Positions 1-10,226 are shown, counted from the first letter of the stretch. The stretch is 13,895 nt of DNA from a virus (IMGVR_UViG_2526164604_000025), one strand, 5' to 3'. Numbers and translations: made by a program. The notes: generated by a model not told the origin, from the letters alone.

Positions 1-84
1 GTGCAGATCCCTGTGGTGAGCGGAAATGGTCAGTTCGCCGCAGTGGCTGAAGTCACCGTTACTGAAGCGGGCGCTGCAGGGTAA
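1..84 (+). CDS. major tail protein V, C-terminal end (partial, 5' end outside window)
   Basis: Frame 1 from position 1 reads VQIPVVSGNGQFAAVAEVTVTEAGAAG then a stop at 82-84. This resembles my recollection of the C-terminal Ig-like tail of lambda gpV, and the position immediately upstream of G fits lambda gene order. Confidence 0.5.
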   Translation: MQIPVVSGNGQFAAVAEVTVTEAGAAG

Positions 85-97
85 ACGGAGGTAATAC

Positions 98-520
98 ATG
101 TTTCTGAAAACAGAACAATTTGAATATAACGGTGTGTCCGTCACGCTTTCCGAATTGTCTGCGCTGCAGCGGTTTGATTATATGAAGTTTGTTTCAGACG
201 CAGAACAACAGAAGACAACGAAGCATGATGTCGTGCGCATTAACCAGCGATATCTGGAAACGGCATCCCTGCTTGTGGCGATGTCGCTATGGCATTCCCA
301 TTCCCTCAAAGGCACTCTGGCCTCTCCGGAGACAGAGATGCAGCAGATCCGCCGTGAAGTGATGCTGGGATGGCCTGCTGATGCACTGAATCAGGCAACG
401 AACCGGGTGCTTTATCTTTCAGGTATGCTGGATAACCGGCACGATGCCGATCCTGAACAAACCGGTAAAGCAGAAGCGACTGAGTCGGTAACATCAAAAA
501 AGCATTCGAAGGCGAGCTGA
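98..520 (+). CDS. tail assembly chaperone G
   Basis: 140-aa ORF (MFLKTEQFEYNGVSVTLSELSALQR...) closely resembling lambda gpG. GGAGG ribosome-binding site at 87-91. Lies directly upstream of the T-like frame. Confidence 0.9.
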   Translation: MFLKTEQFEYNGVSVTLSELSALQRFDYMKFVSDAEQQKTTKHDVVRINQRYLETASLLVAMSLWHSHSLKGTLASPETEMQQIRREVMLGWPADALNQATNRVLYLSGMLDNRHDADPEQTGKAEATESVTSKKHSKAS

Positions 521-855
521 ACTTTGTCCTGAAACTGGCGCGTGAGATGGGGAGAGCCGACTGGCGCGCCATGCTTGCCGGGATGACATCCACCGAATAT
601 GCCGACTGGCGACGTTTTTACTGCACGCATTATTTTCAGGATACCCAGCTGGATATGCATTTTTCCGGGCTGATGTACGCCGTACTCAGCCTGTTTTTTT
701 GCGATCCGGATATGCATCCGGCGGATTTCAGCCTGTTCGCTCCGGAGGCAGAGGAAGGACAGGCGGAGACGCCGGACGAAAATGATGTACTGATGCAGAA
801 GGCGGCGGGCCTCGCCGGTGGAGTCCGTTTCGGGGAGGAGGGAAGGAGGTTGTGA
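98..855 (+). CDS. tail assembly chaperone G-T fusion made by programmed -1 ribosomal frameshift (join 98..502, 502..855)
   Basis: The G frame contains an X XXY YYZ slippery heptamer A AAA AAG at 496-502. The -1 frame from there is open to 855 and encodes a gpT-like sequence (...LAGMTSTEYADWRRFYCTHYF...DENDVLMQKAAGLAGGVRFGEEG). The standalone ORF 547..855 has no independent start context. Confidence 0.75.
496..502 (+). other. -1 programmed ribosomal frameshift slippery site (AAAAAAG)
   Basis: The heptamer sits in the G reading frame 18 nt before the G stop, and the -1 frame downstream carries the gpT homologue. Confidence 0.7.
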
Positions 856-898
856 CAGTTATTGATGGTATCAGAGGACATTTCAGGAGGTGACCACG

Positions 899-3544
899 AT
901 GGCAGGTAATTTTGCCGATCTGACAGCCGTGCTGACACTGGATTCTGCCCGTTTTTCTGAAGAGGCAGCGCGGGTAAAAAAAGAGCTGGGTGAAACCAGT
1001 GCGCTTGCTGATTTGATGTCCGGGAAAGTCAGTCAGTCTTTCAGAAAACAGGCTGATGCTGCTGAGCAGAGTCTGAGCCGACAGGCGCTGGCGGCACAAA
1101 AAGCCGGGATATCAGTCGGACAGTATAAGGCTGCCATGCGCACACTGCCCGCACAGTTCACGGATATTGTCACTCAGCTTGCCGGTGGTCAGAATCCCTT
1201 CCTTATCATGCTGCAGCAGGGGGGGCAGATCAGCGATTCATTCGGTGGACCGCTCAGCCTGCTTACCCTGCTGAAGGAGGAACTTCTCGGGATCAGGGAT
1301 GCCTCTGAATCATCAGAGGAGTCGCTGTCAGATACGGCAAATGCACTGGCTGAAAATGCCCGGAATGCCGGTGAGCTGGGACGATTTATGTCGGTGGCCC
1401 GTGTGGCGGCAGGTGGCGGGGTTGCCGTACTGGCCGCGCTTGCTGCCGCCGCCTGGCAGGCAGAGCAGGCTGACCGGGCCTTATTGCGTTCACTGATCCT
1501 GACCGGAGGGGCGGCTGCCACCACAACGGCAGAATTGTGGAAAATGGCCGGGGTGATCAGCGATGAAGCCGGTGGTGGTATCAGACAGGCGGCAGAAAAT
1601 CTGGCCCGTCTGGCAGAAAGCGGGAAATATACCGCCGGGCAGCTACGGATCATGGGGGAAACCTCTCAGAGATGGCTGCAGACGGTGGGGGACGATGCCG
1701 GGAAGGTGGAAAAAGCCTTTGAAGGGATTGCAGCAGATCCGGTGAAGGCGCTGGCCTCCCTGAATCAGCAGTATAACTTCCTGAGCGTTTCCCAGTTACG
1801 CCATATTGATGAGCTTGAGCGCACGAAAGGTAAACAGGACTGCGGTGACGGAGGCGATGTCCCTGTTTGCGGATGTCATGAATGCACGTCTGGAGCAACT
1901 TGATAAAGCGGCCACGCCGGTGGAAAAAATCTGGGACGATGTTAAAACCTGGACTTCTGACGCATGGGCATGGATAGGTGATCATACACTGGGGGCACTC
2001 AGTCTGATCACTGACGTGGTGGCCGGAACCGTTGAACAGGTGAAGCTGCTGCTTGTGCAGGGGGATCTGGCGCTGGCTGAATTTATTCAGTCAGCCTGGG
2101 AAACGACAAAGAATGTGCCCGGCGTTGGTGCGTTGTTTGGTGAACTGGCAGAAGAGAACCGCGTATTTATTGAGAAAACAAAACGTGATGAACTGGCGCT
2201 GAGAAAATCCATTGCGGAACGGGATGCGCGTATACGCCAGGGGGAAATGGGGTACATCAACCGTTCGCGTGCAACAGGCGTCAGCAAAGGTCCGGGGCAG
2301 CAGGAAGCCGTCAGCCGTCTGGCTGAAGAGCTGACAGGTAAAAAGCATACATCACCGAAAACGCGCTCTGCCGGGGAGAGGGAAGAGGAGCAGGCAAGAG
2401 AGGCTCTGCTTGCCCTTGAAGCTGAGCTCAGGACGCTGGAAAAACACAGCGGTGCGAATGAGAAAATCAGCCGGCAGCGCCGTGATTTATGGAAGGCGGA
2501 AAGTCAGTATGCGGTCCTGAAAGAGGCTGCCACGAAACGGCAGTTATCTGAGCAGGAAAAATCCCTGCTGGCGCATAAAGACGAGACGCTGGAGTACAAA
2601 CGCCAGCTGGCTGAGCTGGGAGACAAAGTTGAACACCAGAAACGGCTGAATGAGCTGGCACAGCAGGCTGCGCGGTTTGAGCAGCAGCAGGGCGCGAAGC
2701 AGGCGGCAATCAGTGCCCAGGCGCGGGCCTCACCGACCGTCAGGCGCAGCGGGAGTCGGAAGAGCAGCGCCTTCGTGACGTGTACGGTGATAATCCGGAT
2801 GCGCTGGCGAAGGCCACATCTGCACTGAAGAACACCTGGTCTGCGGAGGAGCAGCTTCGTGGAAGCTGGATGGCCGGGCTGAAGTCCGGCTGGGGCGAGT
2901 GGGCGGAAAGTGCGACGGACAGTTTTTCGCAGGTTAAAAGTGCTGCCACGCAGACCTTTGACGGTATTGCACAGAATATGGCGGCGATGCTGACCGGTGC
3001 AGAGGCAGACTGGCGGGGATTCACCCGTTCGGTGCTGTCCATGCTGACAGAGATTTTTCTGAAGCAGGCGATGGTGGGGATAGTCGGGAGTATCGGCAGC
3101 GCCATTGGCGGTGCTTTCGGTGGTGGTGCGTCTGCCTCCACGGGGACGGCCATTCAGGCTGCGGCGGCGAACTTCCATTTCGCGACCGGGGGATTTACGG
3201 GGACGGGGGGTAAATATGAACCTGCGGGAATTGTTCATCGCGGGGAGTTTGTCTTCACGAAGGAAGCAACCAGCCGGATTGGCGTCGGCAACCTGTACCG
3301 CCTGATGCGGGGCTATGCGGAAGGTGGTTATGTGGGTGGTGCCGGAAGTCCGGCGCAGATGCGGCGGACGGAAGGCATTAATTTTAATCAGAACAATCAC
3401 GTGGTGATTCAGAACGACGGCTCCAACGGACAGGCGGGGCCGCAGCTGATGAAGGCGGTGTATGACATGGCCCGCAAGGGGGCGCAGGATGAGATTCAGG
3501 CGCAGATGCGTGATGGCGGCGTCTTTTCCGGAGGCAGGCGATGA
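899..3544 (+). pseudogene. tail tape measure protein (lambda gpH-like), reading frame broken twice in this sequence
   Basis: Three consecutive ORFs (890..1903, 1806..2828, 2780..3544) each match successive parts of lambda gpH: the N-terminal SLSRQALAAQKAGISVGQYKAAMR, the middle ALLALEAELRTLEKHSGANEKISRQRRDLWKAESQ, and the C-terminal MAGLKSGW...FHFATGGFTGTGGKYEPAGIVHRGEFVFTKEATSRIGVGNLYRLMRGYA. Frame changes lie near 1841 (+1) and near 2725-2727 (-1, in a G run). Likely true start is ATG 899 after AGGAGG at 885-890. Confidence 0.85.
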
Positions 3545-3870
3545 AAACATTTCGCTGGAAAGTGAAGCCGGATATGGAGGTGAACTCGCAGCCATCGGTG
3601 CGTGAAGTGCGTTTTGGTGACGGGTATTCGCAGCGTATGGCGGCGGGGCTGAATGCTGACCTGAAAACATACCGTGTGACGCTTTCCGTGACCCGGGAGG
3701 AGGCCCGACATCTGGAGGCATTCCTGGCAGAGCACGGTGGCTGGAAGGCGTTTCTGTGGACACCGCCTTATGCCTGGCGGCAGATAAAGGTGACCTGTGC
3801 CGCCTGGTCATCACGGGTTCGCATGCTGCGGGTTGAATTCAGTGCCGAGTTTAAGCAGGTGGTGAACTGA
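3541..3870 (+). CDS. minor tail protein M
   Basis: 109-aa ORF MKTFRWKVKP...RMLRVEFSAEFKQVVN, near-collinear with lambda gpM. Its start overlaps the H stop (ATGA) and its stop overlaps the L start (TGATG). Confidence 0.9.
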   Translation: MKTFRWKVKPDMEVNSQPSVREVRFGDGYSQRMAAGLNADLKTYRVTLSVTREEARHLEAFLAEHGGWKAFLWTPPYAWRQIKVTCAAWSSRVRMLRVEFSAEFKQVVN

Positions 3871-4568
3871 TGCAGGATATTCACGAAGAAAGTCTGAACG
3901 AGTCGGTTAAATCAGAGCAGTCACCGCGGGTGGTGCTCAGGGAAATTGACCTGACGGTGCAGGGCGGTGAGCGGTATTTTTTCTGTAATGAGCTGAATGA
4001 AAAAGGGGAGGCGGTCACCTGGCAGGGGCGGCAATATCAGGTATACCCGATTGACGGCAGCGGTTTTGAGATGAACGGGAAGGGCAGCAGTGCCAGACCG
4101 TCGCTGACGGTGTCCAATCTGTTTGGTCTGGTCACCGGGATGGCGGAGGACCTGCAGAGCCTGGTGGGGGCCACGGTGGTCCGCCGCCGGGTGTATGCCC
4201 GTTTTCTGGATGCGGTGAATTTTGTGGCGGGCAATCCGGAAGCGGACCCGGAGCAGGAGCTGAGCGACCGCTGGGTGGTGGAGCAGATGTCAGAGCTGAC
4301 GGCCATGACAGCCTCGTTTGTGCTGGCCACACCGACGGAGACGGACGGAGCGCTGTTTCCCGGTCGCATTATGCTGGCGAATACCTGTATGTGGACCTAC
4401 CGCTCTGATGAGTGTGGTTACACGGGCGGGGCTGTGGCGGATGAGTTCGATAAACCCACCACCGATATCCGTAAGGACAGATGCAGCAAGTGCATGCGCG
4501 GGTGTGAGATGCGCGGCATGGTGGCTAATTTTGGCGGTTTCCTTTCCATTAATAAACTTTCGCAGTAA
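3870..4568 (+). CDS. minor tail protein L
   Basis: 232-aa ORF matching lambda gpL in length and sequence, including the C-terminal Cys-rich region (CSKCMRGCEMRG). Confidence 0.9.
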   Translation: MQDIHEESLNESVKSEQSPRVVLREIDLTVQGGERYFFCNELNEKGEAVTWQGRQYQVYPIDGSGFEMNGKGSSARPSLTVSNLFGLVTGMAEDLQSLVGATVVRRRVYARFLDAVNFVAGNPEADPEQELSDRWVVEQMSELTAMTASFVLATPTETDGALFPGRIMLANTCMWTYRSDECGYTGGAVADEFDKPTTDIRKDRCSKCMRGCEMRGMVANFGGFLSINKLSQ

Positions 4569-4578
4569 ATCCCGGTTT

Positions 4579-5901
4579 ATGACACAGACTGAATCAGCGA
4601 TTCTGGCGCATGCCCGGCGGTGTGCGCCTGCGGAGTCGTGCGGCTTCGTGGTGAGAACGCCGGAGGGGGAGCGGTATATCCCTTGTGTGAATATCTCTGC
4701 AGAGCCGGAGGCGTATTTTCGTATTGCACCGGAAGACTGGCTGCGGGCAGAGATGCAGGGGGAGATTGTGGCACTGGTCCACAGTCATCCCGGTGGTCTG
4801 CCCTGGCTGAGCGAGGCCGACCGGCGGCTGCAGATAAAAAGTGCACTGTCCTGGTGGCTGGTCTGCCGGGGGGAAATTCATAAATTCCGCTGTGTGCCAC
4901 ATCTGACAGGACGGCTCTTTGAGCACGGGGTGACGGACTGTTACACGCTGTTCCGGGATGCATACCATCTGGCGGGAATTGATATGCCGGATTTTGAGCG
5001 TGAGGATGACTGGTGGCGCAATGGTCAGAACCTGTACCTGGACAATATGGAGGCGACTGGTTTTTACAGGATTTCCCTGCCTTCCGCACAGCCTGGCGAT
5101 ATCCTGCTGTGCTGCTTTGGCGCATCGGTGGCCAATCATGCCGCCATATACTGCGGCAACGGTGAACTGCTTCACCATCTGCCTGAACAACTGAGTAAAC
5201 GGGAGAGGTATTCCGAAAAATGGCAACGACGAACGCATTCAGCCTGGCGTCACCGCCACTGGCACGTATCTGCCTTCACGGGGATTTACAACGACTTTGG
5301 CCGCCGCCTCAGCCTGTATGTGAACACGGCAGCGGAAGCCATCCGTGCCCTGTCGATGCAGATGCCGGGATTCCGCCGTCAGATGAACGAAGGCTGGTAC
5401 CAGATACGTATTGCCGGTGATGACACGGCACCGGAGGCGGTGTACGCCCGTCTTCACGAACAGCTGGGTGAGGGAACGGTCATCCACATTGTGCCGCGAC
5501 TGGCCGGGGCCGGAAAGGGTGGACTGCAGATTGTGCTGGGGGCGGCGGCCATCGTGGGGTCGTTCTTCACTGCCGGGGCATCAATGGCGTTATGGGGTTC
5601 AGCCCTGGCAGCCGGTGGTTTTTCTGCCACCACGATGCTGTTTTCACTTGGAGCCAGCATGATTCTGGGCGGTGTGGCCCAGATGCTGGCCCCGAAGGCA
5701 AAAACACCGGATTACCGCGCAACGGATAACGGCAGACAGAACACGTACTTTTCCTCGCTGGATAACATGATTGCCCAGGGGAACCCGATGCCGGTGCCTT
5801 ACGGTGAAATGCTGGTTGGCTCCCGGCGAATCTCCCAGGACATCAGTACCCGTGATGAAGGCGGTGACGGGAAGGTGGTGGTTATCGGGCGGCAGGCATA
5901 A
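4579..5901 (+). CDS. tail assembly protein K (NlpC/P60 plus JAMM/MPN domains), fused in frame to the I-like region as the sequence stands
   Basis: From ATG 4579: MTQTESAILAHARRCAPAESCGFVV..., with the JAMM motif HSHPGGLPWLSEADRR and an NlpC/P60 Cys/His (GVTDCYTLF, NHAAIY) as in lambda gpK. In lambda, K stops shortly after the I start; here the K frame runs on through the I homologue to 5901. Confidence 0.8.
   Translation: MTQTESAILAHARRCAPAESCGFVVRTPEGERYIPCVNISAEPEAYFRIAPEDWLRAEMQGEIVALVHSHPGGLPWLSEADRRLQIKSALSWWLVCRGEIHKFRCVPHLTGRLFEHGVTDCYTLFRDAYHLAGIDMPDFEREDDWWRNGQNLYLDNMEATGFYRISLPSAQPGDILLCCFGASVANHAAIYCGNGELLHHLPEQLSKRERYSEKWQRRTHSAWRHRHWHVSAFTGIYNDFGRRLSLYVNTAAEAIRALSMQMPGFRRQMNEGWYQIRIAGDDTAPEAVYARLHEQLGEGTVIHIVPRLAGAGKGGLQIVLGAAAIVGSFFTAGASMALWGSALAAGGFSATTMLFSLGASMILGGVAQMLAPKAKTPDYRATDNGRQNTYFSSLDNMIAQGNPMPVPYGEMLVGSRRISQDISTRDEGGDGKVVVIGRQA
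5220..5901 (+). pseudogene. tail assembly protein I (lambda gpI-like), frameshifted near 5295
   Basis: The I-like N-terminus MATTNAFSLASPPLARICLHGDLQR is in frame 0 (5220..5294). The rest of the I homologue (FGRRLSLYVNTAAEAIRAL...GEMLVGSRRISQDISTRDEGGDGKVVVIGRQA) is in the K frame from 5296. One extra nucleotide around 5295 explains the shift. Confidence 0.75.
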
Positions 5902-6062
5902 AAGCGAAAAAATCCCGCAGTGCTCACGGACAGGAACTGCGGGAGCGTTACGAAGATTGAGTGTAAGGAATTATTCTTATGTCACGACAAAAACATTAAC
6001 TCAGAGAGGGAGGATGTGCCGTTCTTTTCAGGGAGAAAGGATTTATCGTCCTGAGGAATAAA

Positions 6063-6091: not shown

Positions 6092-6619
6092 TTATTGAAT
6101 GATGCCGCAGGCCATTCTCGCACCACCACCGCCCAGGGGCTCCGGATGGTCATGATGGTTATCACCGCCAGCATGAAGCATGAGAGAACGCCCTTTAATC
6201 TCTTTTAATGAGTTCAGTCTCGGGGCCAGGACCGGGTAGTTCGCTTTTCCGTCATGCGTCACGAACAGCGCAGGGAGGTCGCCCAGGTGTCCATCCGGAG
6301 ACCAGGGGCCAAGATGTTTGCCGGTGTTTTTCGGGTCAAAGTGACCGCCAGCCGATAATGCTGCGACCGGTTTTCCGTCTTTCAGTGCCGGGGCGCAATT
6401 TCCTTTTTCGTGCACATGAAAACCATGAATGCCTTCAGACAGAGAGTGAAGGGCTGGTGTGAACAGCAGACCGTAGGGGGTCTCCTGAATGGTTATTTTT
6501 CCAATGCTGACTTCTTTTCCGTCAGCACTGACAAGGTTCATTGGGACTTCCTGTTCTGCTGCGTATCCGCATGATGCTGCTGTCAGCATGGCAATGGCAG
6601 CAATGATTTTACATTTCAT
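6092..6619 (-). CDS. sodC: periplasmic Cu,Zn superoxide dismutase (prophage-encoded SodC)
   Basis: Minus-strand ORF from ATG at 6619-6617: [20 protein letters not shown] (signal peptide) ... [12 protein letters not shown]...[12 protein letters not shown]...GDLPALFV...[13 protein letters not shown]. These are the metal-ligand and active-site motifs of Cu,Zn SOD. The longer track ORF (to 7126) is an antisense extension over the J start. Confidence 0.9.
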
Positions 6620-6752
6620 AAAACCCTCATTAATTCCGTTAACAGACTGAGCTTGCTGGTTACAGGGTAACAAACAGCGTTCTGATGATATCGCGCAATA
6701 GCTGTGCAATATCCTATCACTGCGATTAATAATACCAATTGAGAGGAACATT
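6620..6752. promoter_or_regulatory. divergent intergenic region between sodC (-) and J (+); presumed sodC promoter and J ribosome-binding site
   Basis: 133-bp non-coding gap. GAGAGG precedes the J ATG at 6753; a GAGGG-like site precedes the sodC ATG on the minus strand. No specific -10/-35 elements assigned. Confidence 0.3.
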
Positions 6753-9700
6753 ATGGGTAAAGGTGGCGGCAGGGCGCACACGCCGGTTGAGGCAAAGGAC
6801 AATCTTAAGTCCACGCAGATGATGAGCGTGATTGATGCCATTGGTGAAGGGCCGATTGAAGGTCCGGTGAAGGGGCTGCAGAGTATCCTGGTGAACAAAA
6901 CCCCGCTGACGGACACGGACGGTAATCCTGTGATACATGGTGTGACAGCGGTCTGGCGCGCCGGGGAGCAGGAGCAGACACCACCTGAAGGCTTTGAGTC
7001 CTCCGGAGCTGAAACCGCACTGGGCGTGGAAGTGACGAAGGCAAAGCCGGTGACGCGCACCATTACGTCCGCGAACATTGACCGCCTGCGGGTCACCTTC
7101 GGGGTGCAGTCACTGTTGGAGACCACCTCAAAGGGCGACCGTAATCACTCTTCTGTCCGACTGCTGATTCAGTTGCAGCGTAACGGTAACTGGGTGACGG
7201 AAAAGGATGTCACCATTAACGGCAAGACCACCTCGCAGTTCCTGGCGTCGGTGATTCTGGATAATCTGCCGCCCCGGCCCTTTAACATCCGGATGGTCAG
7301 GGAGACGGCGGACAGCACCACGGACCAGCTGCAGAACAGAACGCTGTGGTCGTCATACACCGAAATCATCGATGTGAAACAGTGCTACCCGAACACGGCC
7401 ATTGTGGGGCTGCAGGTGGATGCGGAGCAGTTTGGCGGTCAGCAGATGACGGTGAACTACCATATCCGCGGTCGCATCATCCAGGTGCCGTCAAACTATG
7501 ACCCGGAAAAACGCACGTACAGCGGCATCTGGGACGGCAGCCTGAAACCGGCATACAGCAACAACCCGGCCTGGTGCCTGTGGGACATGCTGACTCACCC
7601 GCGCTACGGCATGGGAAAACGCCTGGGGGCGGCGGATGTGGACAAGTGGGCGCTGTATGCCATTGCGCAGTACTGCGACCAGATGGTCCCTGATGGTTTC
7701 GGGGGCACAGAGCCGCGGATGACCTTTAATGCGTACCTGTCACAACAGCGTAAGGCGTGGGACGTTCTCAGTGATTTCTGCTCGGCGATGCGCTGTATGC
7801 CGGTATGGAACGGCCAGACGCTGACGTTCGTTCAGGACAGTCCGTCGGATGTGGTGTGGCCGTACACCAACAGAGATGTGGTGGTGGATGATAACGGCGT
7901 GGGGTTTCGCTACAGCTTCAGCGCCCTGAAGGACCGCCACACGGCGGTGGAGGTGAATTACACCGACCCGCAGAACGGCTGGCAGACCTCCACGGAACTG
8001 GTGGAAGACCCGGAAGCCATACTGCGCTACGGACGCAACCTGCTGAAGATGGATGCGTTCGGCTGCACCAGTCGCGGTCAGGCCCACCGTGCCGGGCTGT
8101 GGGTGATAAAGACCGGACTGCTGGAAACGCAGACGGTGGATTTCACGCTCGGGTCACAGGGGCTGCGTCACACACCCGGTGACATTATTGAAATCTGTGA
8201 TAACGACTATGCCGGGACCATGACCGGCGGACGTATCCTGTCCATCGATGCCGCCAGCCGCACCCTGACGCTGGACCGTGAGGTGACACTGCCGGAGACC
8301 GGTGCCGCCACGGTGAACCTGATTAACGGCAGCGGTAAGCCGGTGAGTGTGGACATCACCGCACACCCCGCGCCGGACCGGATACAGGTCAGCACCCTGC
8401 CTGATGGCGTGGAGACATACGGTGTATGGGGACTATCCCTGCCGTCACTGCGCCGTCGCCTGTTCCGCTGTGTCTCCGTCCGGGAAAACACGGACGGCAC
8501 CTTTGCCATCACGGCGGTGCAGCACGTACCGGAAAAAGAAGCCATCGTGGATAACGGTGCCCGCTTTGAGCCGCAGTCAGGCACCCTGAACAGCGTCATC
8601 CCTCCGGCAGTGCAGCACCTGACGGTGGAGGTGAGCGCAGCTGACGGCCAGTATCTGGCGCAGGTGAAATGGGACACGCCGCGGGTGGTGAAGGGCGTGC
8701 GCTTCAGTCTGCGCCTGACCAGCGGAAGCGGAGAAGGCAGCCGTCTGGTGACCACCGCCATCACTGCGGATACAGAGCATCGTTCCAGTGGTCTGCCGCC
8801 GGGGGAATACACCCTGACGGTCAGGGCGATTAACAGTTATGGCCAGCAGGGGGAACCGGCCACCACCACGTTCAGGATTAATGCACCTGCGGTACCCGCC
8901 ACGATTGAGCTGACACCGGGCTATTTTCAGATAACAGCGGTCCCGCGTCTTGCGGTGTATGACCCGACGGTACAGTTTGAGTTCTGGTTTTCGGAGACAA
9001 AAATCGCAGATACATCTCAGGTGGAAACCTCTGCCCGTTATCTGGGGACCGGCAGTCAGTGGAGTGTATCCGGCCCGCACATTAAGCCCGGGAAGGATTT
9101 CTGGTTTTACGTGCGCAGCGTCAACCTGGTGGGGAAATCTGCTTTTGTGGAAGCCAGTGGCCGGGCCAGCAATGATGCAGAAGGGTATCTGGGGCTGTTT
9201 CGGGAAAAAATAGGAAAACTGCATCTGGCTCAGGGGCTGTGGGAGCTGATAGACAACAGCCAGCTTGCGGATGAGATGGCGGAGATGAAGACCTCCATCA
9301 CCGAAACCCGCAATGAAATCACACAGACGGTCAGTAAAACGCTGGAGGACCAGAGCGCCATCATACAGCAGATACAGCGCGTGCAGAAGGACACAAATGA
9401 TGACCTTGCTGCACTTTACATGCTGAAGGTACAGAAAACAAAAAATGGCATACCCTATGTTGCCGGTATTGGAGCGGGGATTGAGGATACTGATGGCCAG
9501 CCCCTGAGCAACATACTGCTGCTGGCTGACCGTATTGCGATGATTAACCCGGAGGACGGCAACACCACGCCGTTATTTGTGGCGCAGGGGAATCAGTTGT
9601 TCATGAACGATGTGTTCCTGAAACGACTGTTTGCGGTGAGTATCACGTCATCCGCCAATCCCCCGACGTTTTCCCTGACGCCGGAGGGCAGGCTGACCGC

Positions 9701-10226
9701 AAGAAATGCTGATATCAGCGGTAACGTGAATGCGAATTCCGGGACGCTCAACAACGTCACGATTAACGAGAACTGTCGGGTTCTGGGAAAACTGTCCGCG
9801 AACCAGATTGAAGGCGATCTCGTTAAAACAGTGGGCAAAGCTTTCCCCCGGGATTCCCGTGCACCGGAGCGGTGGCCATCAGGGACCATTACCGTCAGGG
9901 TTTATGACGATCAGCCGTTTGACCGGCAGATTGTTATTCCGGCGGTGGCATTCAGTGGCGCTAAGCATGAGAGAGAGCATACTGATATTTACTCCTCATG
10001 CCGTCTGATAGTGCGGAAAAACGGTGCTGAAATTTATAACCGTACCGCGCTGGATAATACGCTGATTTACAGTGGCGTTATTGATATGCCTGCCGGTCAC
10101 GGTCACATGACGCTGGAGTTTTCGGTGTCAGCATGGCTGGTGAATAACTGGTATCCCACAGCAAGTATCAGCGATTTGCTGGTTGTGGTGATGAAGAAAG
10201 CCACCGCAGGCATCAGTATCAGCTGA
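6753..10226 (+). CDS. host specificity protein J (central tail fibre / tip attachment protein)
   Basis: 1157-aa ORF collinear with lambda gpJ: [22 protein letters not shown]..., [57 protein letters not shown], ending ...[10 protein letters not shown]. Confidence 0.95.

Follow-up and report, generated by a model that had tools for sequence, protein, structure and literature searches.

The tail genes of bacteriophage lambda are arranged in the order V-G-T-H-M-L-K-I-J, where H is one intact open reading frame (ORF) encoding gpH (853 aa), a tape measure protein with TMP_2 and Tape_meas_lam_C domains. Closer relatives of the gene described here are found among the lambdoid prophages of Escherichia coli O157:H7, where the minor-tail function of the Sakai prophage Sp14 has been listed as defective (Asadulghani et al. 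2009, PMC2669165), and where the tape measure protein of Sp14, like that of EDL933 (EDL933_RS06370), is cut before the Tape_meas_lam_C domain. Another example is the tape measure pseudogene CEP72_RS31740 of FDAARGOS_293, which has one frameshift only in 2654 nt and of which Balcarce_24.2 and PNUSAE147324 hold equivalents.

The gene considered here lies in a stretch of 13,895 nt (the window), which is the tail module of a Sp4/CP-933M-type lambdoid prophage of E. coli O157:H7 strain TW10119. The window corresponds to contig AKMA01000014.1 (GCA_000267185.1, 123 kb) from base 3 on and therefore stands at a contig end. Past the window the contig runs on into tRNA-Ser, hyaABCDEF and appCB, which places the prophage at the Sp4/CP-933M-type position; serT-hyaA adjoins the prophage, and a tccP2 pseudogene is carried by this prophage type. 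The TW10119 draft (AKMA00000000) consists of 56 contigs, and the low-contig drafts of the AKMA project are hybrids of Illumina and 454 3-kb mate-pair reads that were assembled with Celera (PMC3593324). The window holds the following features:

Window start: end of V, in a lambda-like tail module
98 to 520, plus strand: gpG-type tail assembly chaperone, a 140-aa ORF (Pfam Phage_TAC_2), annotated gpG in homologous loci, directly 5' of the tape measure gene
496 to 502, plus strand: A_AAA_AAG slippery heptamer, in phase with the G frame and near the end of G; context, and no part of the lesion
547 to 855, plus strand: gpT-frame ORF (Pfam Phage_tail_T), the 3' part of the G-T fusion
899 to 3544: gpH-type tape measure gene, in three pieces
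3541 to 3870: M
3870 to 4568: L
4579 to 5901: K and I, fused in the window sequence
6092 to 6621, minus strand: sodC
6753 to 10226: J
10294 to 10893: lom
10947 to 12251: collagen-repeat tail fibre gene
12273 to 12521: tail fibre C-terminal gene
About 12646 to 13380, minus strand: tccP2-type EspF-repeat pseudogene
3' part of the window, listed after the tccP2-type pseudogene: espV fragment

A -1 shift after 502 gives one continuous G-T product of 252 aa that ends at 855. By analogy with the lambda G-T fusion, the A_AAA_AAG at 496-502 would be the expected conserved -1 programmed frameshift site, although the heptamer of lambda G-T is a different one, G_GGA_AAG. The T part of the homologues is labelled an 'incomplete' pseudogene by PGAP. 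The sodC gene, inserted between I and J in reverse orientation, encodes a Cu/Zn superoxide dismutase of 175 aa and is a moron typical of O157 lambdoid prophages.

Several further local differences are seen in the 3' half of the window. At 10890-12050 the window departs from all the relatives compared in a cluster of private changes, comprising most of the private substitutions as well as deletions of 5 nt at 10896 and of 18 nt at 12045 and an insertion of 3 nt at 10963-10965. The tail fibre gene at 10947-12251 contains, besides a 45-nt repeat at 11901-11991, a collagen-like GXY region at about 11700-12040, and the region as a whole looks like a tail fibre allele absent from the comparison set. 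At 12257-12263 the window has a run of seven adenines where FDAARGOS_293 has eight, so that the usual start region of an 89-aa gene for a tail fibre C-terminal domain is lost and an ORF of 82 aa remains; the A7 string with the same flanks was matched in one IMG/VR contig, and the run may be either a real polymorphism or a homopolymer error. The tccP2/EspF-repeat pseudogene contains a 141-bp tandem repeat (12667-13137, 3.3 copies, 98% matches), and that of FDAARGOS_293 has two further repeat units (2 x 141 nt), a variation in copy number that could be real or could come from repeat collapse in the draft. The tccP2-type gene is annotated 'frameshifted' in relatives.

The tape measure gene resembles lambda H in its place in the gene order and in its two domains, and differs from it in that its frame is broken twice. 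With Sp14 and EDL933 it has in common the G4-to-G3 deletion with 71 nt of identical surroundings and the 3' module through M, L and K, where there are 0 differences from EDL933 over long stretches; unlike the window gene, however, that of Sp14/EDL933 is shorter (2579 versus 2655 nt), is highly divergent in its N-terminal two-thirds before about 2400, and is without the A at 1839. The FDAARGOS_293 prophage is of the same type and occupies the same chromosomal position (tccP2, espV fragment, tRNA-Ser). It has the same H allele type over the whole gene and the same G-run deletion, but is without the extra bases A1839 and C5295, and its K and I are separate and intact. In the finished genomes no near-identical copy of the window was found, the best being this prophage with 99.0% identity over H and 98.8% over 13.1 kb, and among 85 IMG/VR loci from two pattern scans none exceeded 97% identity over at least 6 kb.

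Anatomy of the interrupted tape measure gene

Positions 890-3544 of the window were aligned at the DNA level with two intact homologues, those of TX 265-1 (WP_171876996.1, 881 aa) and of phage VT1-Sakai H, whose genes are both 2655 nt when counted from the GTG at 890. The window gene is divided among three ORFs, the first at 890/899-1903, the second in another frame at 1806-2828, and the third in the first frame again at 2780-3544 (open from 2681). Exactly two indels separate it from both homologues in this alignment, an additional A at 1839 and one missing base at 2725, with 885 nt (295 codons) between them. At column 2725 the window has GGG and TX 265-1 has GGGG, while VT1-Sakai has a C at that column. 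When A1839 is deleted and one G is restored, a single ORF of 881 codons is obtained, which has 10 aa differences from TX 265-1 H. This two-indel anatomy is the direct result of an alignment, so that chance is not an issue. The pieces of the gene are as follows:

899 to 1903, plus strand: first tape measure fragment, with 313 native codons (899-1837), 21 out-of-frame codons and a TGA stop at 1901-1903
1839, plus strand: extra A in CAGG[A]CTGCGG, a +1 insertion with no homopolymer
1840 to 2724, plus strand: middle 295 native codons, displaced by one base, inside the ORF 1806-2828
2725 to 2727, plus strand: GGG run, a -1 deletion relative to the closest intact allele (TX 265-1), followed by 34 out-of-frame codons to the stop at 2826-2828
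2726 to 3544, plus strand: C-terminal 272 native codons in the first frame, where ORF callers begin at GTG 2780 or ATG 2870

The same arrangement is seen when the TX 265-1 protein is matched to the window by tblastn:

TX 265-1 H aa 1-313: window 899-1837, first frame, 100% identity
TX 265-1 H aa 310-610: window 1827-2729, other frame, 96.7% identity
TX 265-1 H aa 610-881: window 2726-3541, first frame, 98.2% identity

The original prediction, which had been made from the sequence alone, is thus borne out in its geometry. It had placed a +1 and a -1 frame change 885 bp apart, and both the indels and the spacing are right against intact homologues. It had also placed the end of the N-terminal segment near 1841; the native part does end there with ...ERTKGKQ, followed from the D of the junction by 21 out-of-frame residues (DCGDGG...). 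The 295 middle codons that it assigned to another frame are those at 1840-2724, collinear with aa 310-610 of TX 265-1, and the first frame resumes at 2725-2727 in a G run, as had been proposed. Its description of a continuous homology to lambda gpH across the three ORFs needs to be narrowed, because matches do occur in all three frames but only as three separate stretches (aa 1-106, 484-581 and 582-853 of gpH, at 62-81% identity). Residues 484-581 correspond to the middle piece (79.6%) and 582-853 to the C-terminal piece (80.9%), while for aa 107-483 tblastn gave no match in the window, the central part being divergent.

Both terminal domains of the family are still recognizable. The N-terminal TMP_2 (PF06791) is present in the ORF at 899-1900 (E = 4.2e-49, 167.5 bits versus a cut-off of 30.2), and the C-terminal Tape_meas_lam_C (PF09718) in the segment 2729-3541 (E = 1.7e-21, 76.5 bits versus a cut-off of 23). 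In the window as in the annotated homologues, the gene is positioned between the G/G-T chaperone genes and M-L-K-I-J. One continuous full-length ORF, as expected of a functional member, is not found, the frame being broken at 1839 and at 2725, and the window gene is a pseudogene of the lambda gpH-type tape measure family, not a functional member of it.

The extra adenine at 1839

The original prediction had suggested a comparison with the orthologous genes of related prophages, and in this comparison the two lesions behave differently, the GGG being common and the A at 1839 private to AKMA01000014.1. The pair is probably best explained by an old, inherited pseudogene lesion in the G run to which a consensus error, A1839, has been added in the draft only. 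In such a sequence of events, the G4-to-G3 deletion at 2725 would have arisen long enough ago for many O157 prophages to have it, and it cuts the tape measure protein short of its lambda-type C-terminal domain; A1839 would have come about when the hybrid Illumina/454 Celera assembly met multi-copy prophage sequence at a contig end.

Among 1439 matching places in 638 complete E. coli genomes none has the additional A at 1839, nor does any of 55 IMG/VR contigs, and an exact-protein look-up of the products of the first and second ORFs returned AKMA01000014.1 only, which, being an exact-match search, is a weak negative. The same contig contains a second insertion of this kind:

5295, plus strand: extra C in AACGA[C]TTTGG, a second private one-base insertion with no homopolymer

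Through this insertion K (C40 peptidase/JAB) runs on into I, giving one ORF of 440 aa at 4579-5901, whereas in all relatives examined the two genes overlap but remain separate, K with 247 aa and I with 192-193 aa. The 440-aa fusion was likewise returned by exact-protein look-up from the source contig only, again a weak negative by exact match, and, being confined to that contig, it is probably another consensus error. Both insertions, at 1839 and at 5295, are absent from 5,426 complete genomes, from IMG/VR and from the gene-position index.

The private variation of the window around these insertions is otherwise very small. Relative to about 40-60 homologous loci, positions 1-6000 contain two private one-base insertions and one private substitution (at 237), i.e. 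an indel-to-substitution ratio of 2:1, and no private substitution flanks either insertion, which makes it unlikely that a diverged, unsampled allele was imported. Next to the window the contig continues with 8.6 kb of single-copy backbone, in which it matches many finished O157 genomes at 100.0% identity; the private divergence of the strain is therefore near zero, and two new indels within 6 kb are accordingly very unlikely as natural events. The H region containing 1839 is present in 2-5 copies per O157 genome. Because the A is private, lies at a contig end and in a multi-copy region, is accompanied by a second private insertion and occurs in a strain of low divergence, we infer that it most likely arose as an error of the consensus, confined to the repeated region. 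Several observations caution this reading, among them that neither private insertion is in a homopolymer and so neither is of the classic 454 error type, and that the clean backbone speaks for an accurate assembly in unique sequence.

Two related possibilities were considered for the assembly itself. A generally error-prone assembly is ruled out by the identity of the adjacent backbone, and since that backbone is error-free, any errors must be limited to the repeated region. For a scrambled or collapsed consensus in H, the pattern of SNPs gives neither support nor exclusion: it consists of tracts of several hundred bases that match known alleles, which looks like natural recombination, with no obviously scrambled consensus.

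It is unlikely, though conceivable, that both frameshifts are real, the common G-run deletion having been inherited and a private +1 (and the K insertion) having followed in TW10119 through neutral decay. A gene that was already inactive would be under no selection against more lesions, insertions outside homopolymers are atypical of 454 or Illumina base-calling errors, and the contig is error-free over its 8.6 kb of backbone. Extra breaks are moreover known elsewhere, in VXJQ01000001.1, where the gene is in pieces of 149, 486 and 224 aa, and in Balcarce_24.2, where it is interrupted by an IS3 element. Spontaneous mutation in E. coli has a substitution-to-indel ratio of roughly 10:1. The private changes in 6 kb, two insertions and a single substitution, are far from this ratio, however, and given that the adjacent 8.6 kb shows no difference at all, the number of new indels expected in 6 kb is far below one. 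That the site is a multi-copy region at the contig end of a draft assembly, and that neither insertion recurs in the collections searched, also count against a natural origin.

The G-run deletion at 2725

The deletion in the G run has a very different distribution. When 71 nt with the GGG at their centre were used as query, 99 complete E. coli records, most of them O157:H7, matched at 100% identity, and the finished genomes with the GGG come from different sequencing platforms, Sanger, PacBio and Illumina. Sakai has the GGG allele in Sp14, with the tape measure annotation split in two (ECs_2726 / ECs_2725), while the resequenced EDL933 record labels the gene 'frameshifted' (EDL933_RS06370), as do the records of FDAARGOS_293, Balcarce_24.2 and PNUSAE147324. 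The same GGG was verified in the sequences of EDL933 and of these three strains. Among the IMG/VR contigs with this sequence context, 5 of 31 have GGG and 26 have one base more, and the 224-aa C-terminal fragment is called as a gene of its own on at least 24 contigs from independent assemblies. Because of the 99 complete records on different platforms and the split or frameshifted annotations, the G4-to-G3 change at 2725 is a genuine mutation. The tape measure gene really is a pseudogene, by this deletion at codon ~610, and the lesion is already known, since it is annotated in the reference genomes Sakai and EDL933.

The possibility that both indels are sequencing or assembly errors and that the real gene is intact is consequently very improbable. 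The source is indeed a draft assembly, the total length equals the 2655 nt of the intact homologues, and the second lesion lies within a G run, a typical site of 454 errors; yet the GGG with identical flanks recurs not only in those 99 complete records but also in many independent drafts made with different technologies, it goes with frameshifted or split annotations in both references, and it is found in FDAARGOS_293, the closest finished relative of the prophage. The original prediction had left the choice between two single-base errors and a genuine inactivation, and each alternative turns out to apply to one position: the lesion at 2725 is real, while that at 1839, seen in this contig only, is most likely an error.

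Beyond about 2400 the window differs hardly at all from the EDL933 prophage (0 differences at 2600-3200 and at 3800-5200, the insertion at 5295 aside), whereas 5' of about 2400 its H allele differs in type from that of EDL933. The deletion therefore lies within a module common to related prophages, presumably spread among them through recombination. The tape measure gene is also mosaic in a wider sense, its first ~1500 nt being of VT1-Sakai/TX 265-1 type and highly divergent from the CP-933M-type allele of Sp14/EDL933, a pattern consistent with recombination between co-resident lambdoid prophages. In VXJQ01000001.1 (GCA_008711415.1), K and L are shortened in addition to the tape measure gene, and in Balcarce_24.2 the IS3-family element lies ~200 nt into the gene, besides the G-run deletion.

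Consequences for translation and tail assembly

As sequenced, translation from ATG 899 yields 313 native and 21 foreign residues before it stops at 1901-1903. With the GGG lesion alone, as in FDAARGOS_293, the product would have about 609 native and 34 foreign residues and end at 2826-2828, without the lambda-type C-terminal domain. The statement of the original prediction that the two shifts cancel holds for the length of the gene but not for its reading: a functional compensation is excluded by the upstream frame having already stopped at 1903, which leaves nothing for the second shift to restore. That the two indels add up to zero is coincidental and without effect on function.

A full-length tape measure protein made by programmed ribosomal frameshifting or transcriptional slippage is effectively refuted, being ruled out by sequence context and absence of conservation: tail clusters do recode, and the in-phase A_AAA_AAG of the G-T -1 site is just upstream, but there is no in-phase slippery X_XXY_YYZ heptamer at 2721-2729 (GCG CGG GCC) and no +1 signal such as an in-frame stop or a hungry codon at 1834-1845 (CAG GAC TGC), a G3 run is far too short for polymerase slippage, and among homologues the two-frame arrangement is not kept, intact ones using a single frame and the 1839 shift being conserved nowhere. 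The run is likewise no phase-variable homopolymer, for which tracts are typically of at least 7, as it occurs as G3 or G4 and in those two states only.

The original prediction had further concluded that the prophage cannot build tails. Because lambda H is essential for tail assembly, we infer the same for the prophage alone, and to this extent the claim is reasonable. It is qualified, however, by the several near-identical H genes of O157 genomes (median 2, up to 8 places per genome) and by complementation between defective O157 prophages, which has been demonstrated by experiment (PMC2669165). It is highly improbable that both frameshifts are real and that the fragments, i.e. the 313-aa N-terminal TMP_2 piece, the middle piece and the C-terminal lambda-type domain, are expressed and used, perhaps together as a split tape measure, perhaps as a shortened protein that disturbs tail assembly in co-resident lambdoid prophages. 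If true, this would mean that prophages of the defective O157 pool interact with one another.

The apparent 'compensating' pair in the tape measure gene of TW10119 is thus one inherited mutation and one probable artefact. For draft genomes with multiple prophages, this means that private one-base indels near contig ends in repeated phage modules need read support. The O157:H7 prophage pool has many known defects, of which the real lesion is one, with little import beyond bookkeeping; this lesion fits the published picture in which most O157 lambdoid prophages are individually defective yet open to complementation or recombination in trans.
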